From: Torpedo marmorata
Taxonomy: Eukaryota
Assembly: GCA_977017645.1 (NCBI GenBank)
Contig: OZ360230.1
Location: forward strand, 14,260,001-14,324,000
Reading direction: 5' to 3'
DNA length: 64,000 nt
Shown here in pieces: positions 2,884 to 57,287 of this stretch. Position 1 is the first letter of the stretch. Every line of letters starts with the position of its first letter. Position numbers and translations under genes: made by a program. The notes below the pieces were generated by a model, which saw nothing but the letters and a program-made list of their open reading frames with translations, ran no database searches and was not told the DNA's origin.

Positions 2884-3785
2884 TGTTATGGACCATGACT
2901 GACCATTTGGACTGCGGACGGTTATCAGGAAGGATGAATTCTTTTGGAGTATACACTGGGGCCAGGTACTGAAAGAGTTAACTTCCCCAGCTACTTGGTG
3001 TACCCAGACAAGATACATTGTTGCACACTTCTGGTGTACCCAGACAGAGAGAGACCAGAGAGAGACAGAGACAGGCTGAACAAGATACATTTGTTTCACT
3101 TCTGCAAAAAGCAGGGGCAGATCTCTGCAAAGCAGACAGTTGTGAGTTGCAAGGCTACAGAACACAGCCAGATCCAGTTTTGTGTGCAAAAGTCAGAGAA
3201 AGACTGACAGAATAGCACATGGCCTCCTGTCTTCAGAGAAAAATTCTGAGAAAAGCAACTTCTGTGGAGAACAGGCGTGAGATCAGCGAGACTAGCTGTG
3301 AGATTCAAGCATACGCCTAAATCAGTGGTATACTGATCTGGAACTTGCAATCCTTATGAACCTACAAGAAGGGGACGTCATCAGAGAAGAAAACAAGTAT
3401 TTGTAAGCATAATCAGTCATTGTCTCTCTCCAACGTTCATTCAGAAGTACGTCTACCAGACCCAGAGCTGAATTGAAGCCTGAACTTAGAGAGTGAATCT
3501 TGTGGACTGTTTATCTTTTTTTTGACTGACTTGTTTTTTTATGACTGACCTGGGGTTTTTGGGGAAAGTTTTTCCATTTTTACATAAGGGTTGGGCACAG
3601 ACTATAATGGTCTGGGCTTTACACACACACACATACACCTTTTAGATAAGAATAGAGTTTATAGACGTTTATAGTGGGGTTAATTGTTGTGAAATTATAT
3701 GTTTACTTGTGTTTAATAAATAATGATTTCAATTTTACCCCTTTTGCATTGCGTCTTCTGTCATTGCTGGTTTGATTCTGTAACA
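2884..3785 (+). repeat. 5' LTR
   Basis: tgttatgg...tgtaaca; about 7 differences (hand count) from the copy at 7982-8882. Confidence 0.95.
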
Positions 3786-3788
3786 AAT

Positions 3789-3807
3789 TGGGGGCTCGTT
3801 GCGGGAT
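3789..3807 (+). promoter_or_regulatory. tRNA-Pro primer binding site
   Basis: tgggggctcgttgcgggat versus canonical Pro PBS TGGGGGCTCGTCCGGGAT, 3 nt after the LTR. Confidence 0.85.
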
Positions 3808-3919
3808 TTGAATCAAAATCTATCTTGGTAATTGAAGGAATCCCAGTTTGGTTTAAGGCATTCCTTTTGGTAAAGCTAATTAAAAGCTAGTGTGTGTATA
3901 ACAAAAAAAACCAGCAACA

Positions 3920-6900
3920 ATGGATGTAGAACATTTTTTGGAATCACCTGAACCTGATACTTTAAAAAAGGCGAAAAAGGAACAGTTAGTGGCTATAGCA
4001 ACAGAGTTGGGCATTGCTTCTGTAAAACCATCTATGAAAAAGGCAGAGATTGGGAGAAAAATTGTCAAGTACTATATAAAAGAAAAAAAGTTTGAGGAGA
4101 GCATGTTAGAGCAGTTTCCCAAGGATAAACCTTCTGAAAACATACAATTGGAAATAAAGAAATTGGAATTGGAACAAAATAAATTGGAGGCAGACAGGGA
4201 ACAAAAGAACAGGGAATTGGAACAAAAGAACAGGGAATTGGAGGCAGACAGGGAACAAAAGAATAGGGAATTGGAACAAAAGAAATTAGAATTGGAACAG
4301 AGGAAATTAGAATTGGAGATAGCCAGGGAACAGAAGAGATTAGACTTAGAGAATGAGGAGAAAAATAGGATATATATGCTGGAAAAGATAAAGTTGGAAA
4401 ATGAGAGGAGACAAGAAGAGCGCCAAGATCAAATTCGTCATCCTGCTGAGGGGTTTTTGGCTAGTAGAGAAGTTAGGTTGGTTCCTCCATTTGAGGAGGC
4501 AGAAATAGATAAGTACTTCCAACATTTTGAGAAAGTGGCTGTGAAATTGAAATGGCCACAAGACCAATGGTCTCTTATGTTACAAAGTGTAATTAAAGGA
4601 AAAGCTCAGCAAGCTTATTCTACTCTTACCACAGAACAAGCTGCTGATTATGAAACGGTGAAGAAGGCTATACTCCAGGCTTATGAGTTAGTTCCAGAGG
4701 CTTATAGACAGAAGTTTAGAAATCTAAAAAGATCAGCAACCCAATCTTATACAGAGTTTGCCTATGAAAAAGTTGTGTGTTTTGACAGGTGGTGCACATC
4801 TAAGGAAGTAAACAATGATTACAATCAATTGAGAGAATTGATAATAATCGAGGAGATAAAAAGGTGTGTTCCTGAGGATATTAAGGTATACTTAGATGAA
4901 AAGGAGGTGAAAACTTGGCGAGATTCAGCTAAGTTGGCAGATGGATATGCTTTAACCCACAAGCCTAAGTGGACGTCAGGTAGAATTTTCCAAAAGGTCA
5001 CGGTGGATAATCAGAAGCAAGTGGAAAGTAAATTTGGAAGTGGTGTTAAGGAAAGGGATGAAGGAAAGTGAAAAAGGGAAAACAATTCGGGTCCCATTTT
5101 CCACTACTGTAGGAAGGAAGGTCATATGATAGCAAGCTGTCCAGTGTTGAAAAAGAAGAGAGAAAAGGATGCAACACCTAATGCTTGTATTCAGAGTGAG
5201 AAGATGCATAACACCCAGGTAGGAGATAAATTTACTGACCAAGTTAAAGATGTATTTAAACCTTTTGTGACTGATGGTTTTGTTTCAGTTAAGGCAGGAT
5301 CAAAACAAGTGCCAGTGAAAATCTTGCGAGATACTGGAGCTGCTCAGTCACTTGTGTTAGATAGTGTCTTGGAATTTTGTGAAGCTACTGACACCGGTGA
5401 CATAAATTTAATAAAAGGAATTGGTGGTGAGGTTGAGTCCATTCCTTTGCACAAAATAGTATTGAACTCAGACTTGGTGGAAGGACCAGTTATAATAGGA
5501 GTGAGATCAGAGTTGCCAGTAGAAGGAGTCTCACTGTTGTTAGGCAATGACTTGGCCAAGGGTAAAGTAGTTCCTGCAGTGCCAATGACCACTAAGCCAG
5601 TCATTGATAAGTCAGAGAAAGACTCTGATATTTGTCCGGCATGTGCCATAACCAGGGCCATGTCTAAGAAAAATGTCACTGTAGAGAAGGCAGTGGAAAA
5701 TAACTTGGAAAAAGAAAAAGAAACTGATAATCAAGAAAACCTGGAAAAGGTTGAGCAATCTCCTATGTTACACCCATCCACTGATAAGACACCTAAAGGC
5801 ACAGATTTGTCACTATCCCGACAGGAGTTAATAGCAAGGCAAAAGGACGATCCGGATCTTGCTGAGGTGAGGGATAAGGTTCTCTCTGAAGAGGAGATTA
5901 AAAAGGTGCCAGTAGGGTATTATGAAAAAGATGGGGTGTTGATGAGAAAGTGGAGACCACGTGATGTTCCTGCCAATGAAGAATGGGCAGTAGTGCAGCA
6001 GGTTGTGATCCCTAAAGTATATAGGGATGAAATAATAACTTTGGCTCATAGTACAACCTTAGGTGGTCATCTTGGGGTGAAGAAAACTATAAGTAAGATA
6101 ATGAAACAATTTTATTGGCCCAGTTTGAGAAGGGAGGTTGTAAGCTTTTGCCGGGCCTGTCACACTTGTCAGGTGGTGGGTAAACCTAATCAGGGTCCCC
6201 CGGTGGCACCCTTGCAACCTATCCCTGCTTTCAGTGAGCCTTTCTCGAGAGTAATTGTGGACTGTGTTGGCCCATTGCCCAAAACCAAAGCGGGGAATGA
6301 ATATTTGTTAACAATTATGTGTGCAGCCACCAGATTTCCAGAGGCCATTCCTCTGAGAAACATAAAAGCAAAGTCAATTGTAAAGGCTATGGTAAAGTTT
6401 TTCACCTTGGTAGGTTTGCCAAGAGAAATTCAATCAGATCAGGGCAGTAATTTCATGTCAGGCGTTTTCCAACAAGTGGTTGATGGACTAGGAGTTAAAC
6501 AGATTGTATCCTCTGCGTACCATCCAGAAAGTCAAGGGGCCTTGGAGAGGTTCCATTCGACTTTGAAAACCATGATTAGAACCTATTGTTGTGAGAAGGA
6601 AAAGGATTGGGATGAGGGGGTTCATTTGTTGTTATTTGCAGCGAGGGAGTCTGTCCAAGATTCGCTTGGTTTTAGTCCATTTGAGTTAGTTTTCGGACAT
6701 GAGGTGAGAGGTCCTTTAAGATTATTAAAAGAACAGTGGATTAATCGTGATGTGCATTTAAATCTGTTAGACTATGTTTCCAAATTTAAGGATCGGTTAC
6801 ATAGGGCTTGTGAGATGGCACAGGAGAATTTAAAGGCCACTCAACAGAGAATGAAGGTTTGGTATGATCGAAAGGCGAAGATGAGGACTTTTAAACCTGG

Positions 6901-7849
6901 TGAGAACGTATTAGTTCTGTTTCCCATCCATTCAAATCATCTTAGGGCTAGATTTTCAGGACCCTATAGAGTTAAGTAAAAAATTAATGATGTCACCTAT
7001 GTTATAGAGACACCTAATCGCAGACGAGACACACAGGTCTGTCATGTGAATATGATTAAGCCATATTTTGAACAGGTGCCACACAAAGGGACTGAAAATT
7101 TACCAGAGGTACTGGTTATTGACAGGGGTAAGGAGGAGACAGATAAAACCAGTTTCAGAGAGGGTCATGGGACTGTTAATTCTCGGGGTTATGTTGTAGG
7201 ACAGGGGAATTTGGCGCCAGTAGAGGCAAAGGTTGTCGCTATTTCCGAGTTCCCTGTTCCAACTGGTAAGAAAACTCTGAGGAGGTTCCTGGGAATGATT
7301 GGCTACTACCGCAAGTTCTGTAAAAACTTTGCTGATCTTGCGCTCCCTCTCACAAATTTGCTTAGAAAGAAAGAGAAATTTGTATGGTCTACAGGTTGTC
7401 AGGAAGCATTTGTCAAATTGAAAGCCATGTTATGCCACCAACCTGTGCTTAAGTCACCTAATTTAGAACAGTCGTTTTCTTTAGCCGTGGATGCGAGCGA
7501 TGAAGCTGTGGGTGCGGTGCTGTTACAGAAGAAGAACGAAGAGGACATTGACCATCCGGTATCCTACTTCTCGAAGAAGTTCAATGATCATCAAAGGAAT
7601 TATTCAACTATAGAGAAAGAGTTGTTGGCTCTTGTGTTGGCTCTACAACATTTTGATGTGTATATCTGTACAGCTCAAAAACCACTCATAGTGTATACTG
7701 ACCATAATCCATTGGTTTTTCTTTGTAAAATGAAAAATAAGAATCGACGGTTGTTGAATTGGAGTCTAATTTTACAAGAATATAATTTGGTAATCACTCA
7801 TATAAAAGGGAGAGATAATGTAATTGCTGATTGTCTTTCTAGATGTTAA
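3920..7849 (+). pseudogene. Gag-Pol polyprotein in one frame with two in-frame stops (5069-5071, 6977-6979)
   Basis: SCAN-like region YETVKKAIL..LRELIIIEE; protease ILRDTGA; integrase HHCC plus VDCVG/SDQG/LERFH; RNase H AVDAS..YSTIEKE..YTDH..ADCLSR; the three listed ORFs share one frame. Confidence 0.92.
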
Positions 7850-7969
7850 ACTTTATCAATGAAAATAGTTCATATTTTGTATTTGTGGATGAACATTGTA
7901 GATTTTGTTTATATTCTGACACCTCACTTACTTTCCTAAATTTTGTTCTTGCAGACCAAAATTTCCTTT

Positions 7970-7981
7970 GAGGGTGGGAGG
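7970..7981 (+). other. Polypurine tract
   Basis: gagggtgggagg immediately before the 3' LTR. Confidence 0.85.
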
Positions 7982-8882
7982 TGTTATGGACCATGACTGA
8001 CCATTTGGACTGCGGACGGTTAGCAGGAAGGATGAATTCTTTTGGAGTATACACTGGGGCCAGGTACTGAAAGAGTTAACTTCCCCAGCTACTTGGTGTA
8101 CCCAGACAAGATACATTGTTGCACACTTCTGGTGTACCCAGACAGAGAGAGACCAGAGAGAGACAGAGACAGGCTGAACAAGATACATTTGTTTCACTTC
8201 TGCAAAAAGCAGGGGCAGATCTCTGCAAAGCAGACAGTTGTGAGTTGCAAGGCTACAGAACACAGCCAGATCCAGTTTTGTGTGCAAAAGTCAGAGAAAG
8301 ACTGACAGAATAGCACATGGCCTCCTGTCTCAGAGAACAATTCTGAGAAAAGCAACTTCTGTGGAGAACAGGCGTGAGATCAGCGAGACTAGCTGTGAGA
8401 TTCAAGCATACGCCTAAATCAGTGGTATACTGATCTGGAACTTGCAATCCTTATGAACCTACAAGAAGGGGACGTCATCAGAGAAGAAAACAAGTATTTG
8501 TAAGCATAATCAGTCATTGTCTCTCTCCAACGTTCATTCAGAAGTACTTCTACCAGACCCAGAGCTGAATTGAAGCCTGAACTTAGAGAGTGAATCTTGT
8601 GGACTGTTTATCTTTTTTTTGACTGACTTGTTTTTTTATGACTGACCTGGGGTTTTTGGGGAAAGTTTTTCCATTTTTACATAAGGGTTGGGCACAGACT
8701 GTAATGGTCTGGGCTTTACACACACACACATACACCTTTTAGATAAGAATAGAGTTTATAGACGTTTATAGTGGGGTTAATTGTTGTGAAATTATATGTT
8801 TACTTGTGTTTAATAAATAATAATTTCAATTTTACCCCTTTTGCATTGCGTCTTCTGTCGTTGCTGGTTTGATTCTGTAACA
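7982..8882 (+). repeat. 3' LTR
   Basis: Direct repeat of 2884-3785. Confidence 0.95.
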
Positions 8883-9382
8883 ATATGAGAAATAAATATG
8901 GGGTCTTTTTGTAAATTTGGCGTCCATATATCCAATCATTAGGTATGAATATTTAAATGCGTTGCTCTACATCCTAGACCCTGTTGACTCTCTCAAATTT
9001 AAAGAATAAAAATACTGTTGAATACCATGCGTCGAGCTGTGGACCCAGCAGCGATCCATACAGATGTTTTAATAAGTAATACTAATACCTTCTTTTCTGT
9101 TTTCTTTTTTAGTTTTTAGTAAAGGGAGGGAATTAAAGGGAGGGGAGGGTGGAGGGTGGGGTAGAAACATTTAACATTTAATACTAAGTAATAATTTTAA
9201 TTGTAATGTTTGGAAGATATATGGGGTGGGGGGGGGTTAAGGGAAGGGATAGATACACTATGTAATACAAATTATGTTTTTTTTATTTACTGGAATTAAT
9301 AATGTATATTATATACGTTGTATTACTGTGTGAAAAATTAAAAAATTTAAAATAAAATATTCAAAAAAACCCAAAAAAAACC
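8883..9382 (+). mobile_element. L1 ORF2 end, 3' UTR and A-rich tail (continuation of 697-2883)
   Basis: Removing the LTR element restores KITYN-MRNKYGVF; G-rich UTR, AATAAA, A tail. Confidence 0.9.
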
Positions 9383-15765: not shown

Positions 15766-16029
15766 AAAAGTAAACAGTAAACACGAAAATCTGTAGACAC
15801 CGTGGTTGAAGTAAAAAACACAAAAGCTGGAGAACTCAGCAGGTCAAACAGTGTCTTTTATGTAGCAAAGGTAGAAATACATAACCGACGTTTCAGACTT
15901 GAGCCCTTCATCAAAGTATGAGAAAATGCCGGCAGGCGTCCCGGCATTTTCTCATACTTTGATGAAGGGCTCAAGTCTGAAACGTCGGTTATGTATTTCT
16001 ACCTTTGCTACATAAAAGACACTGTTTGA
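15766..16029. mobile_element. Penelope-derived fold-back insertion
   Basis: Perfect 89-bp inverted arms at 15844-15932 and 15941-16029; 14-bp TSD gatccatggatgta at 15752-15765 and 16028-16041. Confidence 0.9.
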
Positions 16030-32317: not shown

Positions 32318-35300
32318 TGTTACAAACTCAAACCAGCAATGACAGAAGACGCAATGCAAAAGGGGTAAAATTGAAATTTATATTTATTAAAGACAATCAA
32401 ACATATAATTTCACAACAATCAACCCCACTATAAACATCTAAAAACACTATTCTTATCTAAAGAGTGTGTGTGTGTGTGTGTGTAAAGCCCAGACCATTA
32501 CAGTCTGTGCCCAACCCTCAAGAAAAAAAATAGAAATCCTTCCCCAAAACCCCAGGTCAGTCATAAAAATAAGTCAGTCCCAAAAATACAGTCCACAAAA
32601 ATCACTCACTATGTTCATGGCACGAAGGACTTCTTAATGAACATTGGAGAGAGAGACAATAACTGTTTAAGCTTACGAATGCTTGGCCTGCTTTTCTTCC
32701 CTGATAACTTTCCCTTTTGGTAGGTGCACGAGGACTGCGATTCCAAATCAGTATACCGCTGATTGAGGCGTATACTTGGATTTCACAGCCTGTCTTGCTG
32801 ATCTCACGCCTGTTCTCCACGAAAGTTGCTTTATCTCAGTATTTTGCTGATACAGGAGGCCATGTGCTATTCTCCCAGCCTTTCTCACTGGAATGCACAA
32901 GCCTGTTTCTGATGTTGTTGCTTCAGCCTTTTGCAACTCCAGACTGAATGCTTTTTGCAGCGGTTTGCACCTGCTTTTGCAAAAGTGCAACAAAGTATCT
33001 TTCCACAGCCTGTCTCTCTCTCTCTCTGAGTACGCCAAGTCCTGGGCAAGTTAACTCTTTCAGTACCTGGTCCCAGTGTGTACTCCAAAAGACTTCATCC
33101 TTCCTGCTGACCGTCTGCAGTCCAAATGGTCAGTCATGGTCCATAACACCTCCCACCCACAAAGAAAATTTTGGTCTGCAAGAACAACATTTTGGAAATT
33201 AATTGAGGTGTCACAATATAAACAAAACCCACAATGTTCATCCACAAACACAAAAATATGAACTCTTTTCATTTATAAAGTTTAGCATCTAAAAAGACAA
33301 TCAGCGATTACATTATCTTTCCCTTTTATATGTGTTATCATTAAATCGTATTCTTGCAAAATTGGACTCCAATTTAACAACCGTCGATTCTTATTTTTCA
33401 TTTTACAAAAAAACCAATGGATTATGGTCAGTATATACTATGAATGGTTTTTGAGCTGTACAGATATACACATCAAAGTGTTGTAGAGCCAACACAAGAG
33501 CAAACAACTCTTTTTCTATGGTTGAATAATTCCTGTGATGATCATTGTACTTCTTCAAGAAGTAGGATACCGGATGGTCAATGTCCTCTTCGTTCTTCCT
33601 CTGTAACAGCACCACACCCACAGCTTCATCGCTGGCATCCACGGCTAAAGAAAATGGCATTTCTAAATCAGATGACTTAAGCACTGGTTGGTGGCATAAA
33701 ATGGCTTTCAATTTGACAAATGCTTCCTGACATCCTGTTGACCATACAAATTTTTCTCCCTTTCTAAGCAAATTTGTGAGAGGGAGCGCAAGATCTGCAA
33801 AGTTTCTACAGAACCTGCGGTAGTAGCCAATCATTCCCAGGAACCTCCTCAGAGTTTTCTTACCAGTTGGAACAGTGAACTCGGAAATAGTCACAACCTT
33901 GGCCTCTACTGGCGCAAACATAACCCAAATAAGTAACAGTTCCATGACCCTCTCTGAAACTGGTTTTATCTGTCTCCTCTTTACCCCGGTCGATAACCAG
34001 CACCTCTGGTAAATGTTCAGTCTCTTTGTGCGGCACCTGTTCAAAATATGGCTTAATCATATTCACTTGTCTGCGATTAGGTGTTTCTATGACAGAGGGT
34101 GACCTCATTAATTTTTGACTTAACTCTATAGGGTCCTGAAAATCTAGCCCTAAGAGGATTTGAATGTGTGGGAAACAGAACTAATACATTCTCACCAGGT
34201 TTAAAAGTTCTCATCTTGGCCTTTCGATCATACCAAACCTTCATTCTCTGTTGAGTGGTCTTTAAAGTCTCCTTTGCCATCTCACAAGCTTTATGCAACC
34301 GATCCTTAAATTTGGAAACATAATCCAACAGATTTAAACACACATCACTATTAATCCACTGTTCTTTTAATAACCTTAAAGGACCTCTCACCTCATGTCC
34401 GAAAACTAACTCGAATGGACTAAAACCAAGTGATTCTTGGACAGAGTCCCTCGCTGCAAATAACAACAAATGAACCCCCTCATCCTAATCCTTTTCCTTC
34501 TCACAACAATAAGTTCTAATCATGTTTTTCAAAGTCGAATGGAACCTCTCCAAGGCCCCTTGACTTTCTGGATGGTACGCAGAGGATACAATCTGTATAA
34601 TTCCCAGTCTATCAACCACTTGTTGGAATACGCCTTGCTGTGTGTTTTGTTACAGAAGGTGCCACTGCCTGACATGAAATTACTACCCTGATCTGATTGA
34701 AGTTCCCTTGGCAAACTTACCAAGGTGAAAAGCTTTACCATAGCCTTTAAAATTGCCTTTGCTTTAATGTTTCTCAGAGGAATTGCCTCTGGAAATTTGG
34801 TGGCTGCACACATAATTGTTAACAAATATTCATTCCCCGCTTTGGTTTTGGGCAATGGGCCAACACAGTCCACAATTACTCTCGAGAAAGGCTCACTGAA
34901 AGCAGGGATAGGTTGCAAGGGTGCCACCAGGGGACCCTGATTAGGTTTACTCACCACATGACAAGTGTGACAGGCCCGGCAAAAGCTTACAACCTCCCTT
35001 CTCAAACTGGGCCAATAAAATTGTTTAATTATCTTCAGTATAGTTTTCTTCACCCCAAGGTGACAACCTAAGGGTGTGCTCTGAGCCAAAGCTATTATTT
35101 CATACCTATATACTTTAGGGATCACAACCTTCTGCACCACTGCCCATTCTTCAGTGGCAGGAACATCACATGGTCTCCACTTTCTCATCAACACCCCATC
35201 TTTTTCATAATAACCCACTGGCACCTTCTTAATCTCCTCTTCAGAGAGAACATTATCCCTCACCTCAGCAAGATCAGGATCCTCCTTTTGCCTTGCTATT

Positions 35301-37372
35301 AGCTCCTGTCGGGATAGTGACAAATCAGTGACTTTAGGTGTCTTATCAGTGTATGGGTGTAACACAGGAGATTGCTCAACCTTTTCCAGGTGTTTTTGAT
35401 TATCACTGACTTTTTCTTTCACCAATTTATTTTCCACTGCCTGCTCTACAGTGACATTTTTCTTAGACATGGCCCTGGTTATGGCACATGCCGGATAAAT
35501 ATCAGAGTCCTTCTCTGACTTATCAATGACTGGCTTAGAGGTCATTCGCACTGCAGGAACTACTTTATCCTCAGCCAAGTCATTGCCTAGCAACAGTGAG
35601 ACTCCTTCTACTGGCAAATCTGATCTCACTCCTATTATAACAGGTCCTTCCACCAAGTCTGAGTCCAACACTATTTTGTGCAAAGGAATGGACTCAACAT
35701 CACCCCCAATTCCTTTAACTAAATTCATTTCACCGGTGTCAGTGGCTTCACAAAATTCCAGGACACTATCTAACACAAGTGACTGAGCAGCTCCAGTATC
35801 TCGTAAGATTTTCACTGGAACTTGCTTTGATCCGACCTTAAATAAAATAAAACCATCAGTCACAAAAGGTTTAAATACATCCCTAACTTTGTCAGTAAAT
35901 TTGTCTCCTTCCTGGGTGTTACGCCTCTTCTCACTCTGAATACAAGCATTAGGTGTTGCATCCTTTTCTCTCTTCTTTTTCAACACTGGACAGCTTGCTA
36001 GCATATAACCACCCTTCCTATAGTAGTAGCAAATGGGACCCGAAGGGTTTTCCTTTTTCCGCTTCCCTTCATCTCTTTCCTTAACACCACTTCCAAATTT
36101 ACTTTCCATTTGCTTGGGATTATCCACAGTGCCCTTTTGGAAAATTCTGCCTGACGTCCACTTAGGCTTGTGGGTTAAAGCATATTCATCTGCTAACTTA
36201 GCTGAATTTTGCCAAGTTTTCACCTCCTTTTCATCTAAGTATGCCTTAATATCCTCAGGAACACACCTTTTTATCTCCTCAATTGGTATCAATTCTCTCA
36301 ATTGATTGTAATCATTCTTTACTGCCTTTAATGTGCACCACCTGTCAAAACCCACAACCTTTTCATAGGCAAACTCTGTGTAAGATTGGGTTGCTGATCT
36401 TTTAAAATTTCTAAACTTCTGTCTATAAGCCTCTGGAACTAACTCATAAGCCTGGAGTATAGCCTTTTTCACCGTTTCATAATCAGCAGCTTGCTCCGTG
36501 ATAAGAGTAGAATAAGCTTGCTGAGCTTTTCCTTTAATTACACTTTGTAACATAAGAGACCATTGGTCTTGTGGCCATTTTAATTTCACAGCCACCTTTT
36601 CAAATCAACCCCACTATAAACGTATATAAACACTATTCTTATCTAAAGAGTGTGTGTGTGTGTGTGTGTGTGGGTAAAGCTCAAACCATTACAGTCTGTG
36701 CCCAACCCTCAAGAAAAAAGTAGAAAACCTTCCCCAAAACCGCAGGTCAGTCATAAAAATAAGTCAGTCCCAAAAATACAGTCCACAAAAATCACTCTCT
36801 ATGTTCAGGGTCCAAATTCAGCTCTGTGCGCTGGCACAAAAGACTTCTTAATGAACGTTGGAGAGAGAGACAATGACTGTTTAAGCTTACGAATGCTTGG
36901 CCTGCTTTTCTTCCAATGGCTTTTCCTTTTGGTAGGTGCACGAGGATTGCGATTCCAAATCAGTATACCACTGATTGAGGCATGTACTTGGATCTCACAG
37001 CCTGTCTCGCTGATCTCACGCCTGTTCTCCACGAAAGTTGCTTTATCTCAGTATTTTGCTGATACAGGAGGCCATGTGCTATTCTCCCAGTCTTTCTCAA
37101 TGGAATGCACAAGCCTGTTTCTGATGTTGTTGTTTCATCCTTTTGCAACTCCAAACTGAATGCTTTTTTCAGCGGTTTGCACCTGCTTTTGCAAAAGTGC
37201 AACAAATTACCTTTCCACAGCCCGTCTCTCTCTCTATGTGTCTCTCTCTCTGAGCACAGCCAGTCCTGGGCAAGTTAACTCTTTCAGTACCTGGTCCCAG
37301 TGTGTACTCCAAAAGACTTCATCTTTCCTGCTGACCTTCCGCAGTCCAAATGGTCAGTCATGGTCCATAACA
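32318..37372 (-). mobile_element. Second Gmr1-type Gypsy copy (different LTR subfamily), RT core missing, with a deletion of U5/PBS/5' gag
   Basis: TSD attg (32314-32317, 37373-37376); 3' LTR 32318-33148; partial 5' LTR about 36603-37372. Confidence 0.93.
33282..36602 (-). pseudogene. Gag(SCAN)-PR-IN-RH, frameshifted
   Basis: Highly similar to 3920-7849 at protein level. Confidence 0.9.
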
Positions 37373-38226
37373 ATTGAAAAGGAAAGAAGAATTCTCATCA
37401 TAATGAAGAAAAACCCCCAAACGTATGTCCGACATATCAGAAACACTCTTTAGAAGGCAGGTGTGGATATGTCAATGACTACCGTCCGCAGAAGACTTCA
37501 TGAAAAGAAATACAGACGCTACACTGCAAGATGGCAAAGGTGGTATGCTTTGGACCTTGAGCTGTTCCTTTGAGCCACCACACTTTGCTCTTACAATCAC
37601 TCTGATAAAGGTTAAACTTGGTCTCATCTGTCCACAAGACCTTTTTCCAGAATTCTGCTGGCACTTTTAAATACTTCTCGGCAAACTGTAATCTGGCCAT
37701 CCTTTCTGTGGCGAACTAATGGTTTGCATCAAACCGTCTTTGTCCCAAACATTATGGAGGGCACTGTAAATACCACTGTTAACGGTTGTTGGAATGCATT
37801 CCAATCAAATTGCTTTGTTCTGGACCATCTGGGAACATTGGTAAATGGGAGCAACAAAGTATTTTGTTTGAAATTAATGAGAATGAATAAAGGAATAACG
37901 AAGAGTCAGGTGAATTAAAACTGTGAATCCAATGTCAAGGAAGGCATGGAAAGAGAAATTCATATTGGATTAAGAGTAGGAAAAAGGAAAAACATTTAAA
38001 AATGTAACTTTTTAACATTTTTATAACATTAATATTTCACCACCAGTATGAATAAGACTGAAGACTTATAATTATTCATTACCCAGGTCAGGAATATTAC
38101 TTGGACTTATACGCTGTTATTAGTAAGTAAAAACTTCTGTGACATCTAATAGTCAACTAAAGTGCGCAAGTTGACACCATCCAAAATACAGAAAGGATAA
38201 ACATAAATGGTACTTATGTTAAGTTA

Positions 38227-45904: not shown

Positions 45905-46205
45905 TGATGAGCCCATCAATAACTCCAAAAGACTAGAAGTTACACAAGAACTGAAAGGCTTTTATTAGCAAAAGAATGGAGCTACATTCGTGCTGGTGAT
46001 CTGTCCCGGACTGGGGGAGGAGCCGTGGCACAATGGCCTTTATTCAAGGGGGTTTGTGGGAGGAGCCACCGGGACAGTCAGCAGGGCATGTCCAGACTTA
46101 TCGCCTAGCCCACAATCCATATACAGTGGTTTACCACATTCACCCTTCCTTTTTAAAAGAGTCCAGCGGGGTGAAGTGTATAATAACATTTACAAGAGAT
46201 TAACA

Positions 46206-47252
46206 TTACAGATCGAGTCGATCAGGCGGTCGAGTTTGCCCTTGTGATCGGCGCAGTACTTGTGGTGATGGGGCAGGTGGCGGAGCTACCTCCTGCCTGA
46301 TCTGGGGTACTGCCACGTCTGGTGATCGCGAAAATGCTGGTGCGTGTGGTGTCGTGCTGGAATTGAGTGGTGCCTCAATGGTAGGCAAGGGGGTAACCGT
46401 AACAAGGGGGTGTTCGAGGGCAGGTTCCAGTGCTCCTGCGGGCGCCAGGTCCCGGATGGAGACCGTGTCTTCCCGCCCATCAGGAAAACCCACGTAGGCG
46501 TACTGGGGGTTTGCATGTAATAATTGGACCCTCTCGACCATTGGGGCGTATTTATTGCTCCTGACATGTTTGCGGAGCAGCACTGGCCCTGGGGACGTCA
46601 GCCATGCTGGTAGGGTAGTCCCGGTGGTCGACTTCCTGGGGAAGGAAAAGAGTCTCTCATGAGGTGTAGCATTGGTGGATGTACATAGCAGGGATCGGAT
46701 AGAGTGGAGTGCCTCGGGAAGGACTTCTTGCCAGCGGGAGACTGATAATCCCTTAGACCTGAGGGCTAAGAGTGTGGCCTTCCAGACCGTGGCGTTCTCC
46801 CTTTCTACTTGTCTGTTACCCCGTGGATTATAGCTCGTGGTCCTGCTAGTGGCGATTCCCTTGGCCAGCAGATATTGTCGCAGCTCGTCACTCATAAATG
46901 AGGACACCCGGTCGCTATGGATATAGCAGGGGTATCCAAACAACGTGAAGAGTTTGCGGAAGGCCTTTGTGACTGAGGTGGTCGAGGTATCGGGGCAGGG
47001 AATGGCGAAAGGGAACCGCAAGTACTCATCAATAACGTTGAGGAAGTACACATTGCGGTCAGTGGAGAGAAGTGGGCCCTTAAAGTCGACGCTGAGTCAC
47101 TCAAATGGGCGGGTTGCTTTTATTAACTGTGCCCTGTCAGGACGGTAGAAGTGCGGTTTGCACTCTGCGCAGACTTGGCAGCTGCTGGTCATCGTCCTGA
47201 CCTATTCCAGGGAGTACGGTAGATTACGGGCTTTCACAAAGTAAAAAAGCCT
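46206..47252 (-). pseudogene. Gypsy integrase (portion 3' of the BEL insertion)
   Basis: CQVCAEC, VDFKGP, IHSDR, QVEREN; contains stops. Confidence 0.9.
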
Positions 47253-50200
47253 TGTAGCGACTTCAACCAATAAAAATAGTCGCTTGGAGGCTAAGTTAGG
47301 CGTTTGTCTGCGACGCGTTTTCATTTATTTCCAATACAAGTTCAGTTGTATTTAAATTCTTTATTTTTAACACACAAAACTTGTAACCATCTTCTTTAAT
47401 GTTCTATGAAAAGTCTTTAAGTAACGTTCTATGTGGCTGATTCTTAATAACAAAATATTCATATAAAAGTTAACGTGGCTTAACGATGCTTAACGATCTT
47501 TAACGATGTTCAACGATATTCAACATAGTTCAACGATCTTTAACGTCTTGATGATGCTTAACTTTCTTTAACGCTGGCTTGACGTGTTTTAAAGGTGTTT
47601 TAAACGTTCGACAGAAATTGTCGACACCTAACTTACCCTCCTCAGATTTCCAACTGCCCATGCACGCGGGGGAACCTATATTTAAATGTACGAAGATCCC
47701 ACCCGCGCATGCTCCGTTGTGCACGCGCTGGCCCTGGCTCCAACCGTTCGCTGCCAGCACTGAGCCAAGTGCACGTGTCGACCCAGTCCATGGCGCATGC
47801 GCACTGGCGGATGCGCCAGCCCCGGCTGAAGCCGCTGCCGCTGAACCAACCGCGCATGCGCCGCCACGTTCCGGCTCCGTAAGTGGTGCCGGCCCTCGCG
47901 CATGCGGCCTACGGGAAGAGGCCTACGCACCCTGGGACACCGCCAGTGCCCGAGGCCAAAACAGCAGGTAAGTACTGAGCCTATGGCTCTTACACCGGCC
48001 CCTAATTATTATAATGAGATGTAACGTCTCTAATAATAATTACATAACTATAATCTATTATATATAACAATTAACTACATAACATTCGAACGTTACACAG
48101 GTCTCTTTTCATCTTCACTTCCACTCTGAAGTCCGTATAGTGGGCAAAGTACAAAACACAAAAATCCAACAAAATAAAGTCAGTTTGTACTTATTAAAGT
48201 TCCTCCGTCTACTGTAGAATCCATGAGCCAAACCGTTGACCAGCAAACCTCAGATCTTCCTCAGACAGAATAGACACAGCTTTCCTTTTGAATTTAACAC
48301 AAGGCACTTCTTCAACATGTCGTTTCACTTTATTTCTTTTTTCAGTATTCCACTTCTCATGTGAAGAATTTAAACTCTTAGAACTGGAATTTGAATATTT
48401 ATTTGATCCTTTCGATTTTAAACAGGTCTGTTTAACCACTCTGGTTTCTATTGCCTTTTCCTGCAATTCCAAATCCAATTTTGCAACTTTCAATTCGGTC
48501 TCAGTTCTTTCCGAGAAATTAATAATTTGATCTGAAGTCAAAATATCATGTGATACGTTGATATTTCTATTGTCAATCCTGTTGCGACAAACTTGAAATT
48601 TTTTAATTTCTTCATCTTGCTTGTTACATTTCTGCAATGCAATATCACATTCTTTCTGCATTGTTAATTGTTTTGTGTTATTAATCAATAACTTGTTCTC
48701 TTTCAAAACATTAATCTCTTCCTCCAACCTTTTACATTTTGATAATGCTGAATCTCTTTCCTCGATAACTGTATTCATTTCTTCAGCAGTTATTCTTTTC
48801 TTCTGCTTTCTGACTTTGCGAGTTTTACTTACAATTAAATCTTTCTGTTTACTGTTTTCTTGATTATCTAATATTTCCAATTCCCCTTTCAACATTTTGT
48901 TCTCTGAATTCAATTGCATTAAATTATCATTCACATTATTCTTTATTCCATCAGTACAGTTTTCTGTGTTTTCCAGGTTTACATCACATTGTAATATTTC
49001 TTCATTAGCTTTGTCTGTTGTATTCTCTGAACTACAAAATTTACATTCAGATTTGTTTTCAGTCACTTGTTTTATTCCTGTATTGGATTCAATTACACAT
49101 GAATGATCAATAGTATTATTTGCAACATTTTCTAATACTTCACTTTCATCCATTTCTGACGAAATTAATTCCTTCAGTGTTGTTTTAAATACCATTGATT
49201 TATTTTCACATTGATCTGTTTTCTTTTCTTCAAAAGTGATTTTCTTATTCACAGTTTTTTGCTCTTCGCTTAACTCTTCAACTTTCACAACCGAAATTCT
49301 ATTAATATTTATCGCTAACTGTTCCTGAGCAATATCATTATTTCTTTCCAGTGGTCCATTGATTGTCCAACCAAACTTGGTTCTAATAGCGTAAGGTCCA
49401 TTCCTTTTACTCTCTATTACTTCTTTCGGTTCCAAAACCTTTGGCACATCTGAACCAATCAGCATTTCTATCTCAGAATTAATTTCAGGTAAATAAACCT
49501 TCCACAGATAAGCTAAATGATGGATATCCCTTTGATGAGGAATATTTCCTTCATTCACAGGCATAGTCTTCTGAGTATATACACTTGGAAGATCACAAAT
49601 TTTTTTGTCATCCAATCCAGCAACCTCTAAGCCTGAAACAATGTTAGTTTCAACAACCTTTTCTTGTCCCATTGTTCTTAACATAATTCTTGATCTTCTT
49701 CCTTGAATATTAAGTTTATTCATTAGTCCTTCCGTGCAAAAGGATGCAGTGCTGCCTGGGTCTAAAAATGCATATGTTTTTACTATTACATCCCCTTTCT
49801 TGGCCTTGACTTGTACAGGCACTATTGAAAGTTTGAAGTTATCCACACCGGCCCCAGTAAGACCACTTGTCTGAACCGAGGTTATAACATTATTTTCTGT
49901 TGTTTCCTTTGTTTCTGTTTGCTCTTTTCCCAATTCCTTGTTTCTGTTATGGATATGCAAAATTCTAGGATGTTTCAAATTGCATATGTTACAATTAATT
50001 CGCTTCTCGCAGTTTTTACTGATGTGTCCTTTACACAAACAGCTAAAACATATTCCATTTTCCTTTAAGAAAGCGATCTTTTCCTTATGTTCCTTCTTTT
50101 CCAATCGTAAACACATTTCCAAAGCATGTCCACCTTTACAGAACAAACAACTTTTTTCATTAGGCAAACTTTCCTTTTCCTTATTTACTTTGTCATTTTC

Positions 50201-53183
50201 TTTACTTATAACTTGCACATTAGTAGCAAAAGTACTCCTTTTCACTTTCGAACTAGACTGTGTGTTAGACTTCTTTACATCTTTGCCCATTGAATTATCT
50301 CTGGTATTTCCATATAGTGGATCTGTTTCAACGTACACCCGTCGTTCAAGAAAATTTACCAAATCCTTTAAGGTAATTTTTCGACCGAAATCTACTTGTA
50401 AATCACAAGCCAAATTTCTCCATCTATCCCATAACTTGTAAGGTAATTTTTCTAAGATGATTCGCATATTACTATGCACATCCAGCTCACGAATATTATC
50501 GATTTCTTCCATAGCATTACAACATCCTCGTAAAAACAGAGTATATTCTTGCAGAGCCTTTACATCATTTTGTTTTATTGATGTCCAATTAAGAGCTTTA
50601 TCCATATAAGCTAAAGCAATTCGATGCTTGTTGCCAAAATATTGTTCCAATAAAGCCTTAGCTTTGTCTAATCCTCTTTCTGAAGACATTTGTTTACAAC
50701 TCTTTACCAGTTCTTTTGGATGTCCCTTTGTAAACATTTCCAAATAATAAAGACATTCATCACGATCTTGGCATTTATCTTCAATATTGCGTTTGAAAGA
50801 TCTCATAAATGATTGATATTGAAGTGGATCACCATCAAAAGTTTGTATCTCTTTCTTGGGTAAAGAAGAGAGAGACTGTAACTGAAACAATGATGCAGCA
50901 ATTTCATTTTGTCTTTCCTTGGATGACAATACATTGCTCTGTTCACCCTCTCTTGTTGCATGCAATGTATCTGGAAACCTCACTGGTGTCGTTTCTTCCA
51001 TATTTCTGATGCTTGACTCATATAACAAAGAAGCTGCTTCGTTCGACCGAACCCAAGCCGCAGCTTTGCTTTCAGATGTTATCATTGGTACATGTGACTC
51101 GATACCAATATGCTCTTGAAAGGTTTATCCTTGTATATGTAAGTTTTGTATCCTTGGTTCTAAAATATCTATCCTTTTCGTTGGTTTCTTTTCCTGTGAC
51201 TCCTTTTTTAAATATGACCTTTTATTATCAGACAATTTAGATAATTTACTGCTAGCACCAGATACCATTGAGCCTTCTATTGCTTTCTTTTCTGCCTTGG
51301 CAATAGCAATGTTTGCTTCTAGCTCCTGCTGTTCTTTTCTCTGCCTTAGTTGCTCCTTCTCTTGTCTTAGCTGCTTCATTAGCTACTTCTCATTTTGTCT
51401 TAGCTGCTCCTTTAGCTGTTTCTCATTTTGTCTTAGCTGCTCCTCCTCTTGTCTTAGCTGCTCCTTTAGCTGCTCCTCCTTTTGTCTTAGCTGCTCCTTT
51501 AGCTGCTCCTCCTTTTGTCTTAGCTGCTCCTCCTCTTCTTCCAAAATATACTTATCCTTAAGCGTTTTTTGTTGTGCAAGAAGAGCGGCCAATCTAACAT
51601 CAATCTTTATACGTGACGATGCAGAACCTGAAGTACGAGAAACTCTGGAGCTCGAACCAGAACTTCTTTTGCTTCTCCTGCTTTCAGCATTTGAGACACT
51701 GTCACTTGCTTGTATTTCGTCCTGCAGTTCATATGTTGTCTTCATACTTACCTCTTTATCCAATTCAAATTGTATATCCTTTGCATCTTTAACCACTTCA
51801 ATTTCTTTATCATTTGTTGACACAATTTCAGCCATTTCCAAGTTATCTTCTTGTTCATTTAATGAAGCTGCCTCTTCATCCTTTGCCTGCTTCAATCTTT
51901 CGATAAGAACCCTTTTATTTCCTCTTATGTCCTTTTTCAGTCACTTCAATTCTTCTTTAATATCCAAAACCTTCATGTCTTCAATACGTTGGTCCTCAAC
52001 AGCAACATCAGCGGTTGCTGCGCCAGCTGCTGATATATCAGTAGCTGCTGTATCAGTGGCTGCTGCGGCCATTTTACTCGTCTTGTTCCTCTTTCCTTCA
52101 AGCATACACAATACCAGCCAAACAACAGTCCCCAATGGACCAGCGGCAGCAATTCCAATCTGTGTTCTTACTTACTAAAGATACACAGAAGGAGTCCACA
52201 GACTTATGCCAACCACTTCAAATGACTGTAATGTGCTGCAATCCACAAACGAGTTTTTTTTATCTTCTTTCCTTCTATTTTCTGTTCCAAACAGCCAGCT
52301 CTTTATTGACTATGTAGATTGCGGTGACTTCGTTCCAACGTTGGTCACCTGGAGGCTAAGTGTGGTCCTTATGTATCTGGAAACCTCACTGACCGTCCTA
52401 ATATCTCCTTCCTATTCTATTTTCCGTTTCAACAACAATTTCTGTCGACTTATTTTAGCGACTTCAACCAATAAAAATAGTCGCTTGGAGGCTAAGTTAG
52501 GCGTTTGTCTGCGACGCGTTTTCATTTATTTCCAATACAAGTTCAGTTGTATTTAAATTCTTTATTTTTAACACACAAAACTTGTAACCATCTTCTTTAA
52601 TGTTCTATGAAAAGTCTTTAAGTAACGTTCTATGTGGCTGATTCTTAATAACAAAATATTCATATAAAAGTTAACGTGGCTTAACGATGCTTAAAGATGT
52701 TCAACGATATTCAACATAGTTCAACGATCTTTAACGTCTTGATGATGCTTAACTTTCTTTAACGTTGGCTTGATGTGTTTTAAAGGTGTTTTAAACGGTC
52801 GACAGAAATTGTCGACACCTAACTTACCCTCCTCAGATTTCCAACTGCCCATGCACGCGGGGGAACCTATATTTAAATGTACGAAGATCCCACCCGCGCA
52901 TGCTCCGTTGTGCACACGCTGGCCCCGGCTCCAACCGTTCGCTGCCAGCACTGAGCCAAGTGCACGTGTCGACCCAGTCCATGGCGCATGCGCACTGGCG
53001 GACACGCCAGCCCCGGCTGAAGCCGCTGCCGCTGAACCAACCGCGCATGCGCCGCCACGTTCCGGCTCCGTAAGCGGTGCCAGCCCTCACGTATGCGGCC
53101 TACGGGAAGAGGCCTACGCACCCTGGGACACCGCCAGTGCCCGAGGCCAAAACAGCAGGTAAGTACTGAGCCTATGGCTCTTA
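47253..53183 (-). mobile_element. BEL/Pao LTR element, non-autonomous (no RT, RH or IN)
   Basis: LTRs of about 740 bp at 47253-47994 and 52454-53183; PPT aggggccgg; inserted in the Gypsy IN zinc finger (HPGVT|RLFYF). Confidence 0.92.
48209..52135 (-). pseudogene. BEL Gag (3 zinc knuckles) - aspartic protease - novel coiled-coil tail with MIPOL1-like segment; one frame, three stops in the N-terminal part
   Basis: FDGDPLQY, CLFC..H..C, CFSC..H..C, CNIC..H..H, AFLDPGS, GWTING; the four listed ORFs share one frame; the last 958 codons are open. Confidence 0.85.
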
Positions 53184-53185
53184 AT

Positions 53186-55099
53186 GGTGACTCCAGGGTG
53201 GCAGAGGTCACAGTGGAGGGCATATAACCGGTCCATCTGTGCGCTAGCACACGTCCCCCGGGATAGAGCGTCGGAGGGCTCATTGAGCTTCCCGGGCCGG
53301 TACATTATATCATAGTTATAGGTGGACAGTTCGATTCTCCACCTCAGGATTTTATCATTTTTGATTTTACCCCGCTGTTGGCTGCTGAACATGAATGCGA
53401 CTGAGCGTTGGTCAGTCAGCAGAGTAAACCTTTTTCCGGCGAGATAGTGCCTCCAGTGCCTGATAGCTTCCACTATGGCTTGGGCCTCTTTCTCCACCGC
53501 TGAGTGCCGAATTTCTGGGCCTTGAAGGGTACGGGAGAAGAACGCCACCGGTCTTCCCGCCTGGTTGAGGGTAGCAGCCAGTGCGAAGTCGGACGCGTCA
53601 CTCTCTACTTGAAAGGGAGTGGACTCGTCCACAGCGTGCATTGCTGCTCTAGCAATGTCCCCTTTTATGAGGCTGAAAGCCTCACGTGCCTCCGTTGTAA
53701 GGGGAAAAGTGGTGGACTTGACTAGGGGGCGGGCCTTGTCTGCATAATTAGGGACCCATTGAGCATAGTACGAAAAGAAGCCCAAGCACCTTTTGAGGGC
53801 TTTGAGGGTGTGGGGAAGCGGTAGTTCCAACAGGGGGCGCATGCGGTCGGGGTCGGGGCCGATGACCCCGTTCTTCACAACACACCCCAGGATAGCGAGT
53901 CGGGTGGTTCCGAACACGAACTTGTCCTTGTTATAAGTTAGATTAAGTGCTTTGGCCGCCTGGAGGAACTTCCGAAGGTTGTTGTCGTGGTCCTGGCGGT
54001 CGTGACCGCAGATGGTGATATTATCTAAGTACGGGAAAGTGGCCTTTAAATTGCATTGGTCCACCATCCTGTCCATCTCCCTCTGGAAGACGGATACCCC
54101 ATTTGTAACCCCAAAGGGGACGCGCAGGAAATGATAGAGCCTGCCGTCCGCCTCGAAGGCGGTGTAAGTGCGGTCCTCCCGGCGAATGGGGAGCTGGTGG
54201 TAGGCAGATTTGAGCTCTATGGTGGAGAAGAGCTTATATTGAGCTATCTGATTTACCATATCTGCAATGCGTGGTACGGGGTACGCGTCAAGCTGCGTGA
54301 ACCTATTGATGGTCTGACTATAATCTACCACCATCTTGTTTTTGTCCCCGTTCTTGACGACAACCACCTGGGCCCTCCAGGGACTTGTGCTCGGTTCAAT
54401 GATCCCCTCCCCAAGCAATCGCCTCACCTCTGACTTAATTAATGCCCTGTCCCCTGCGCTATATCTCCTGCTTTTGGTCGCCACAGGTTTACAATCAGGG
54501 GTCAGGTTGGCGAATAGCGATGGGGGCGGGATCCTGAGGGTGGATAGACCGCAAGTAGTGTGGGGTGTGTTTTTAAGGAATTGGTGATTACCGACAGTAA
54601 TCGGTGGGAGGGGCCCGTCATACTCCATAGTCACACTTTGGAGGTGACTCTGGAAGTCGAGCCCTAGTAGTACAGGTGCACACAGTCGGGGCATGACCAA
54701 TAGCGTGAAGTCCCGGTATTCCGTGCCCTGTACCACTATCGTCGCTACACAACCCCCCCGGATGTCTGTTGTGTGCGACCCGGAAGCCATGGCAACCCTC
54801 TGGCTTACCGACTGTGTCGTGAGACCACATCGCTGTACCGTGTCTGGGTGGATGAAGCTCTCTGTGCTGCCTGTGTCGAACAGGCAGTTTGTCCTGTGTC
54901 CCTCGACCAGAATGTCCATCATTGACCTCGCTAGTTGATGGGGTGCACTCTGGTCGAGTGCGACTGACGCCAACGTTGGGTCGCTGTCGTGCTCCGACAT
55001 CGCGATGGGGTGCCAGTTGTTCCGGGGTGGCGGCACCAATGGGTCGCTGTCTTGATCTGACGTCGCGATGGGGTGCCTGCTGTCCCGAGATAGTGGCAC
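53186..55099 (-). pseudogene. Gypsy pol: protease, RT, RNase H, start of IN
   Basis: LFDTGS, PFGVTN, YLDN, ESDAS, VEKEA, LTDQ, SDALSR. Confidence 0.93.
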
Positions 55100-55329
55100 C
55101 CTGTGTCAGCTCGCTGGTGTGGAATAAAATGGCCGCTCCCATGACTCGCACGTGTTGGCGGCAGGTAGGTAAGATGGCGGCGCCGGAAGTGACGAAACCC
55201 AAGATGGCTGCCCCCATACCTCGCACGTGTTGGCCGCGGCGGCGGGTAGGTAAGATGGCGGCGTCGGAAGTGACGACACACAAGATGGCCGCCCCTGAGT
55301 CTCGCACGCGGCACTGCTCGAACCCGCTC

Positions 55330-55943
55330 GCGGCTTTGATCAGCAGACCTTAGCGAAGTGGCCTTTCTTCCCGCAGCTGGAGCAGGTCGCTTCTCAGGCC
55401 GGGCAACGTTTTCGGGGGTGCTTCTCAAGCCCGCAGAAATAGCATTTCTCGGGCTCGCGGCTGATGGCGGCAGTGGTTGATTCACTAGCATGGTGGGTGG
55501 TCGGCATCCACGGAGCCTGCTGGAGATCGCACGCTTGGATAGCATCCGAGTTCTGTAGCGCGGCCTCCAGCGTGTCGGCCAGTTCGACGGCGGAACGGAA
55601 GGTGAGGTCAGCTTGTTCCAGCAGCCGCTGGCGCACATATACTGACCTGGTCCCTGTGACAAAAGCGTCTCTCCCTAGGAGCTCTGCGTGCTGTTCAGCC
55701 GTCAGTCCCCGGCAGTCGCACGCCCGCACGAGCGTTTGTATGGCCCGTACGAACTCCGCGTTCGACTCCCCGAGCCGCTGCTGCCGCATCGCTAGCCTGT
55801 GCCTTGCATTTTTCGGCGTCTTCTTGCACCTTGATCTCCCCCAGGAACGATTCGAAACAGACTAGCCAGCGTTCGAAGGCATTGCCAGCGTCCGGTGTTT
55901 GTGGGTCGATGTCCAGTTTGTCGGGTCTCTAGATGTTCTCCAT
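55330..55943 (-). pseudogene. Gypsy gag, disrupted
   Basis: ATG at 55943 (MENI*RPDKLDIDP); knuckles CYFCGLEKHPRKRC and CSSCGKKGHFAKVC. Confidence 0.8.
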
Positions 55944-57287
55944 GTTTACAGTTTTGCTAATAAAATTGATGAGCCCATCAATGACTCCAAAAGACTAGAA
56001 GTTACACAAGAACTGAAAGGCTTTTATTAGCAAAAGAATGGAGCTACATTCGTGCTGGTGATCTGTCCCGGACTGGGGGAGGAGCCGTGGCACAATGGCC
56101 TTTATTCAAGGGGGTTTGTGGGAGGAGCCACCGGGACAGTCAGCAGGGCATGTCCAGACTTATCGCCTAGCCCACAATCCATATACAGTGGTTTACCACA
56201 CTACCCTACCTATATCTTCTTAAAAGTCTATTTGGAGTTTACACCTCCAAATTGTTTGTCACCTGCAAATTTGGGAACCCAAGTCCAAGTCCTTAGTATA
56301 GATTAAACGTCCATTAATCACTGAAGAGCATTTCTGTACATTTTATGCCAGTTTGAAAATCAACCTTTCACTATATTCCATTTCCTCTCACTACAATTTT
56401 CCAGCCATGTTATCACAGTTCCTTTTACACCATGGACTTCAAGCATGATGATGTCAACTATTCGGCAATTTATCAAACGCCTTTATGAAGTTTATGTAAT
56501 CATATTTCCCTCACAACTCTCTCTATTAACTTTAACAATCCATTTTGGGTTTCCTGAATCAACTCAAACTCATCCAAGGGGCTGTTAATTTTATCCCTGA
56601 TTATTGTTTCTTGAACTTTCCCATAATGAAATTAAATTTATTAACTTGAGTTTAACTCTTTTTGAACAAGCATGTACCATTTCAAATTTCCAGTTTTCAG
56701 ATTCTTCTCCTGAATATTCAGATGTTTGAAAGATTACAAGGTGTGACTTGGCCTTTCTAATACCAACTTTCCAATCTTTTCAGCCCATCCAAAATCTTAA
56801 CCACAATAGTTTTCAATAACAAGTTTAAGATTATTTTCATGTTGTGGTTTGAAATCAAGACACTTTGCCTGCATAAGATTTTAAAAGTGAATTTGTCAAT
56901 CTGAAAAACCACCAAATGTCATGGAGGAAATAAAGTAACAGTCAAAAAGCGGGAAGGAACCCTGCGGGTCATGCAGCATCCATGGAAGTCAATGTTTCGA
57001 GCCTGAACACTTCATCAGGATGACTCCTGGAGGAAAAGCAGCTTTACTGTTAATTTTGGAAGCTATTTTTGTCCAACATTGCCCTCTTGTGCAAATCTGA
57101 CAAATTGCAACAGTCCCACAAAGATGGACTGCAAGTTGATCCATGATGGAAAAGTGTTGCAAGTTTCTGAGAACAAAGGAATTTACTACCAATGATGTTA
57201 GTACATAGTTACTTGTTCTCTCAATAGTATGCTATTTAAGTGACATAATATTGACAGTTTCAACAACATTTCTCGATAACAAGGTCT

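Follow-up and report, generated by a model that had tools for sequence, protein, structure and literature searches.

A BEL/Pao retrotransposon of Torpedo marmorata whose primer-binding site pairs with its own LTR, with relatives in which the predicted primer is split by an intron

The window analysed here, 64,000 nucleotides of the Torpedo marmorata contig OZ360230.1, contains a non-autonomous BEL/Pao element whose primer-binding site (PBS) pairs with a segment of its own LTR, and for which the likely primer of reverse transcription is a fragment of the element's own RNA, in the manner of Tf1, a reading to which we give a probability of about 0.78 from sequence comparison. An earlier note on this DNA had proposed tRNA-independent self-priming in a BEL/Pao lineage, and the proposal is supported by covariation between the paired sites, by a negative tRNA screen covering 11 anticodons and by relatives in which the predicted primer is interrupted by an intron.

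Results

Structure of the window element

The element is a BEL/Pao LTR retrotransposon that encodes Gag-protease only (Table 1), with two LTRs identical at 718 of 741 positions. As the ends of the 5' LTR are damaged in the window copy, in which an intact target-site duplication is absent, the LTR ends were defined from sister copies (family A), which have TG..CA LTR ends, a TTAA spacer and the 5-bp target duplications expected of BEL/Pao. The coding region contains a BEL-type Gag, with DUF1759 and three Cys-His motifs, and a protease, and matches residues 1-1007 of the 2130-aa polyprotein of an autonomous family of the same genome (family B) at 84%. In family B the protease is followed by RT, RNase H (PF05380) and integrase, none of which was found in the window element or in the complete sister copies that were read. 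The open reading frame 3' of the protease (window 48209-49300, about 340 codons) is A-rich, common to the sister copies and without a match to the family-B polyprotein. A U5 end and PBS of family-B type remain in the leader (within window 52301-52370), and family A looks like the product of a new LTR put in front of an older LTR end.

The BEL insertion sits within a Gypsy element (window 45905-56211) whose LTRs are 98% identical. Two further, related Gypsy elements in the window (2884-8883, plus strand; 32318-37374, minus strand) have a SCAN domain and carry integrase upstream of the RNase H region, an order that we take to be Gmr1-like. At 15844-16029 an inverted repeat of 89 nt, perfect in both arms, encloses a loop of 8 nt.

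Table 1. Features of the BEL/Pao element, in element sense (window coordinates)
Feature	Position	Strand	Basis or remark
5' LTR, termini damaged in window copy	52454..53183	-	97% identity to 3' LTR
TATA-like box TTTAAATATA	52868..52877	-	sequence, survey; putative function
Candidate start site: initiator-like GCAGTT (several sister copies have TCAGTT)	52843..52848	-	sequence
Splice-donor-like GTAAGT upstream of paired site	52822..52827	-	similar GTRAG in families A, B, D, E
Candidate self-primer within the LTR, complementary to PBS, then CGTTT	52798..52812	-	sequence, survey
AATAAA, candidate poly(A) signal	52561..52566	-	sequence; would put paired site inside R
U5 hairpin adjoining LTR end	52457..52485	-	fold z -2.0; stem covariation between families
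4-nt spacer (TTAA in most sister copies)	52450..52453	-	sister-copy comparison
Non-tRNA PBS, GTCGACAGAAATTGT	52435..52449	-	sequence, survey, tRNA screen
Family-B-type U5 end and PBS remaining in leader	52301..52331	-	sequence; complement absent from family-A LTR
Splice-acceptor-like tract before gag, candidate	52175..52188	-	sequence
BEL Gag-protease gene and unrelated tail, interrupted by stop and frameshift	48209..52105	-	DUF1759
Polypurine tract region TAGGGGCCGG	47995..48004	-	sequence; near-identical in relatives
3' LTR	47253..47994	-	LTR comparison
3' LTR copy of paired site, last base changed	47607..47621	-	LTR comparison

The PBS and its LTR complement covary within the genome

It had been stated from the letters of the window that no TGG-type PBS follows the 5' LTR, and this holds, as on the minus strand the LTR end at 52454 is followed by the spacer and then by GTCGACAGAAATTGT. 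The perfect 15-nt complement described inside the LTR is likewise exact in the window element (52449-52435 against 52812-52798), while across families the conserved core shortens to about 11 nt. When the LTR was shuffled 20,000 times, none of the shuffles matched the 25 nt that follow the LTR over 15 nt, and 173 did so over at least 10 nt. A perfect run of at least 15 nt is kept at 24 of 30 family-A loci, and the family has two PBS variants at positions 9-10, with the copy's own LTR site matching in all seven variant copies that have a readable site (fold-back products excluded). In several family-A variants (L158, L172, L181, L218, L224) spacer and PBS are tandemly duplicated.

Covariation of the two sites, proposed beforehand as a check, was strongly positive both within the genome and across distant relatives. 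Family B, with 11,939 LTR-PBS junctions in the genome, has the PBS GTCAATAAAG matched by CTTTATTGAC in its LTR, and at locus L034 letters are changed on the PBS and LTR sides alike. Families C and D carry different matched pairs of 10-13 nt, and family E, for which the LTR end was fixed from its 3' LTR copies, has a 15-nt match in unrelated letters and an identical layout. The stem letters of the U5 hairpin also differ in step between families of the genome, clearly so in several of them. The LTRs of families B and E (L036, L041, L046, L048, L072-L080) end in TA rather than CA and are flanked by 5-bp target duplications; in the young form of family B the PBS follows the LTR directly, with no spacer.

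The pairing extends to distant relatives

Scanning metagenomes yielded 66 loci, with the LTR end unplaceable in 25 (10 of these without a gag end), and the run after the LTR pairs with the LTR over at least 9 nt in 38 of the 66 and partially in three (L113, L128, L135). A curated set was assembled from 8 elements of this genome and 31 from other contigs. In this set, 36 of the 39 elements pair over 9-15 nt (mode 11) in one register, 25 of them contiguously and 11 across an intron; the misses are L069, L128 and L135. The PBS decamers of the set come in 32 versions, each with a match in the LTR of its own element. When PBS and LTR were combined across families that differ in PBS, 4 of the 1,436 combinations reached 9 nt, as did 14 of 3,900 shuffles. 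The LTR ends of 22 of the 39 elements were picked by motif and best score, which biases the count towards hits; 15 of the 17 elements with an end fixed independently of the pairing (by an LTR pair, by 3' LTR copies or by a contig end) also show it.

The 3' end of the predicted primer always falls 0-6 nt from the LTR end. Across elements, positions 3-11 are occupied by two to four different Watson-Crick pair types, and the terminal pairs are conserved (C:G in 35 of 36, A:T in all 36). Even L290, at 40% RT identity, retains a 10-nt match. The U5 stem-loop folds with z below -1.5 in 13 of the 39 elements. Elements L289-L293 are BEL retrotransposons on contigs filed under prokaryotic metagenome-assembled genomes and are probably animal DNA; a search of viral contigs found no relatives.

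Position of the paired segment and intron-split primers

The TATA-like box that had been placed about 60 nt upstream of the LTR site was confirmed at a distance of 63 nt, and in the window element the initiator-like motif lies 34 nt above the site. Of the 39 elements, 8 have a TATA-like box 40-79 nt above the paired segment and one has it at the Tf1-like distance of 20-39 nt. From these positions the paired segment may be internal, 10-45 nt inside the RNA, unlike that of Tf1. A primer in that position would call for one more cut, or for a stop, neither of which is required in Tf1. The paired site stands upstream of the candidate poly(A) signal, so that both RNA ends would carry it.

In the 11 intron-split elements the LTR offers a complement only when a predicted GT-AG intron within it is removed, with 4-8 nt before a GTRAGT donor and the remainder after a pyrimidine-rich AG acceptor, the intron measuring 67-372 nt. 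The predicted pairing in these elements covers 4-7 nt unspliced versus 10-14 nt spliced. L127 is a further split case of 13 nt with a GTAGGT donor, spotted by eye. A complement that is split by a predicted intron implies that the primer would be RNA, lying downstream of the start site and within the transcript. As splicing of the 3' R copy would remove the intron from the progeny, we infer that only the cap-proximal R copy is spliced. Retrocopies in which the donor-like motif of the LTR would be spliced to the acceptor-like tract of the leader were searched for, with 0 matches, and one run of contigs of uncertain type contained no splice joint, an uninformative result.

The split families also bear on a variant of self-priming in which the primer is supplied not by the cut 5' end but by another source, be it the R copy at the 3' end, a further RNA packaged alongside or a short transcript from abortive initiation. 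Presence of the site at both RNA ends would allow such a source, and the TATA positions, which suggest a leader ahead of the paired segment, point the same way. In the split families, however, the 3' R copy would have to stay unspliced for the intron to be inherited and so could presumably not be the primer, and we regard a primer from elsewhere than the cut 5' end as improbable, at roughly one chance in ten.

On an RT-RNase H tree (a quick version of 46 rows, with four loci without a long RT match left out), the split or contiguous label requires two changes, compared to a mean of 11.1 in shuffles, none of 500 of which was as low. The window family is placed in the contiguous group through the Gag-protease kinship to family B. 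We lean, with some reserve, towards the view that self-priming is general in this one BEL/Pao clade, which reaches from marine samples to vertebrates, that the ancestral primer was built by the host spliceosome and that contiguous forms arose by at least two intron losses; because the root of the tree is unsure, the two losses are a reading of the tree and not a result.

Footprints of reverse transcription at the paired site

In 40 consecutive young copies of family B, position 11 past the LTR-proximal PBS base is variable (G in 26, T in 7, A in 6, C in 1), and positions 12-38 are nearly invariant. This position, just beyond the 10-nt PBS, accounts for 13 changes on the tree, the most of any of 835 columns. 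Such a hotspot fits plus-strand strong-stop DNA that would end after a primer of 10-11 nt, and is consistent with a short primer. In addition, the 3' LTR of L082 is separated from the target duplication by the spacer and the first 1-2 bases of the PBS, which a start of minus-strand DNA at the spacer would predict. The search for such unprocessed right ends returned 41 matches with one clear case (L082/L171) and one probable (L166), most of the candidates being target duplications or 5' LTRs whose PBS has decayed.

At 130 family-B and 10 family-A places the PBS is continued by LTR sequence from upstream of the site in reverse complement. Of 30 such family-B loci that were read, four lie after 3' LTRs, and the end points vary (16-79 nt or all of U3), with many reaching the LTR start. 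These read-through products show that the two sites pair during replication; as their end points vary, they fit a DNA fold-back and point to no single primer 5' end or start site. Among the first 100 of 1,270 rows no recurrent foreign tail follows the family-B PBS, nearly all being leader variants.

Several insertions have related structures. L157 (1058-1897) is an integrated mini-element consisting of LTR, PBS and inverted U3 with a flanking 5-bp duplication, and there are many fold-back insertions like it in family B. At L163, L164/L165, L168, L230, L233 and L236 the target duplications differ only at the first U5-side base, which matches the spacer; these possibly reflect unprocessed donor ends, in a search whose pattern selected for that base.

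The pairing might instead serve as a structural helix between R and leader, in packaging or translation control, with priming by something else nearby. The predicted leader fold includes this helix, and the donor-like motif upstream of the paired site in the families of this genome would suit such a role. Against a purely structural helix stand its end, always 0-6 nt from the LTR end, and the conservation of its terminal pairs; the hotspot just past the helix and the extended end of L082 mark it as a cDNA boundary, and the tRNA screen of 11 anticodons found no other primer site. We hold this explanation to be unlikely, a little more so than a primer from elsewhere than the cut 5' end.

Screens for tRNA and other primers

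A tRNA-primed element would have a PBS that starts with TGG and is complementary to a tRNA 3' end; TGG stands at the PBS in 0 of the 39 elements. The comparison with host tRNAs that had been suggested beforehand was negative over a set of 52 genes, which comprise 39 distinct sequences and 11 anticodons: the seven PBS of this genome that were compared match at most 7 nt anywhere and at most 2 nt at the 3' end within these 11 anticodons. Searches against Rfam gave nothing above chance.

Priming by a small RNA of the host, whether a whole tRNA, half of one or some other species, with the LTR complement as a by-product, has a precedent in the half-tRNA priming known in Copia groups (according to the available part of PMC6317226), and the host tRNA set was screened in part, at 11 anticodons. 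Against it stand these short best matches and the 32 PBS decamers, each with a match in its own LTR and some of them only across an intron, which argue against a fixed host primer and make this explanation very improbable. Chance, or a local inverted duplication in the window copy, for which the GTCGAC palindrome in the paired site could be cited, is refuted for practical purposes by the shuffling result and by conservation with changed letters across the family and the clade.

Discussion

In the mechanism that we propose, the paired site in R near the RNA 5' end would fold onto the PBS, and a cut at the 3' end of the site, after GAC in most families, would free a 3'-OH. For the window element the cut would probably be made by RNase H supplied in trans from the autonomous family B. 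Minus-strand DNA would copy the spacer and U5, and the lost 5' part would return from the 3' R at the first strand transfer. Plus-strand DNA would copy 10-11 nt of the primer, thereby rewriting the PBS from the LTR every cycle, which would keep the PBS and the LTR site in step. In the intron-split relatives the primer would be a product of splicing, which probably acts on the cap-proximal copy of R alone, and with the intron inside R splitting the primer, only a spliced 5' end could start reverse transcription.

The closest parallel is the Ty3/gypsy group of Tf1 and Tf2 of S. pombe, Tj1, Tf1/sushi and Tcn1, which according to the available text of PMC7175516 and PMC4600332 have an approximately 11-nt complement between the PBS and the element's own LTR, no tRNA site and a U5 stem-loop adjoining the PBS; the window clade resembles them in the first two and, with its predicted U5 hairpin, may do so in the third. 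In Tf1 the RNA's initial 11 bases pair and RNase H cleaves between base 11 and base 12 (PMC7175516, in the part available). The Tf1/sushi group has Ty3/gypsy chromovirus enzymes, whereas the window clade has BEL domains and belongs to another superfamily; and, unlike the split BEL/Pao relatives, the group has no intron-built primer mentioned in the available portions of those two papers. Outside Gypsy, self-priming was likewise predicted from sequence for the plant Ty1/copia elements TAR, Houba and Osr-1, for which the accessible part of PMC6317226 does not mention a splice-built primer. Fungal GalEa elements, with their Conserved Hairpin Site, and the bivalve biv-TRIM are similarly without a tRNA PBS, but their repeats lie within the internal region, unlike those of the window element (PMC5445492 and PMC6934838, as far as available), and the GalEa authors did not find an inverted repeat in U5 with which the hairpin site could pair (PMC5445492, in the same partial text).

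Among BEL/Pao elements (Belpaoviridae), Suzu, Sinbad, Sparrow, Surcouf and Dan are alike in domain content and aquatic hosts, as compared by description in the available parts of PMC3118150 and PMC6238403. The terms primer, priming, PBS and tRNA do not occur in the main text of the BEL/Pao papers PMC554778, PMC3118150 and PMC6238403. Neither self-priming nor a splice-built primer in BEL/Pao was found in the literature searched, which took in the available portions of PMC3601003 and PMC8220671 and had Repbase, GyDB and subscription papers outside its scope.

Taken from the sequences, the most likely explanation is Tf1-like self-priming outside the known groups, with a pairing that is real and clade-wide. 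This would be a known mechanism in a new setting, and the splice-built primer would be its newest part. If true, BEL/Pao would be the third LTR superfamily with tRNA-independent priming, and a large BEL/Pao group without a recognisable PBS would be explained. With the intron-split form, the onset of reverse transcription would be tied directly to splicing by the host, a connection absent from the literature searched, and both the predicted exon junction and the predicted cut site can be checked cheaply in ordinary RNA data. With a primer and a PBS that the element itself encodes, and with the PBS likely renewed from the LTR in every cycle, neither the supply of tRNAs nor tRNA fragments would serve to control such elements.
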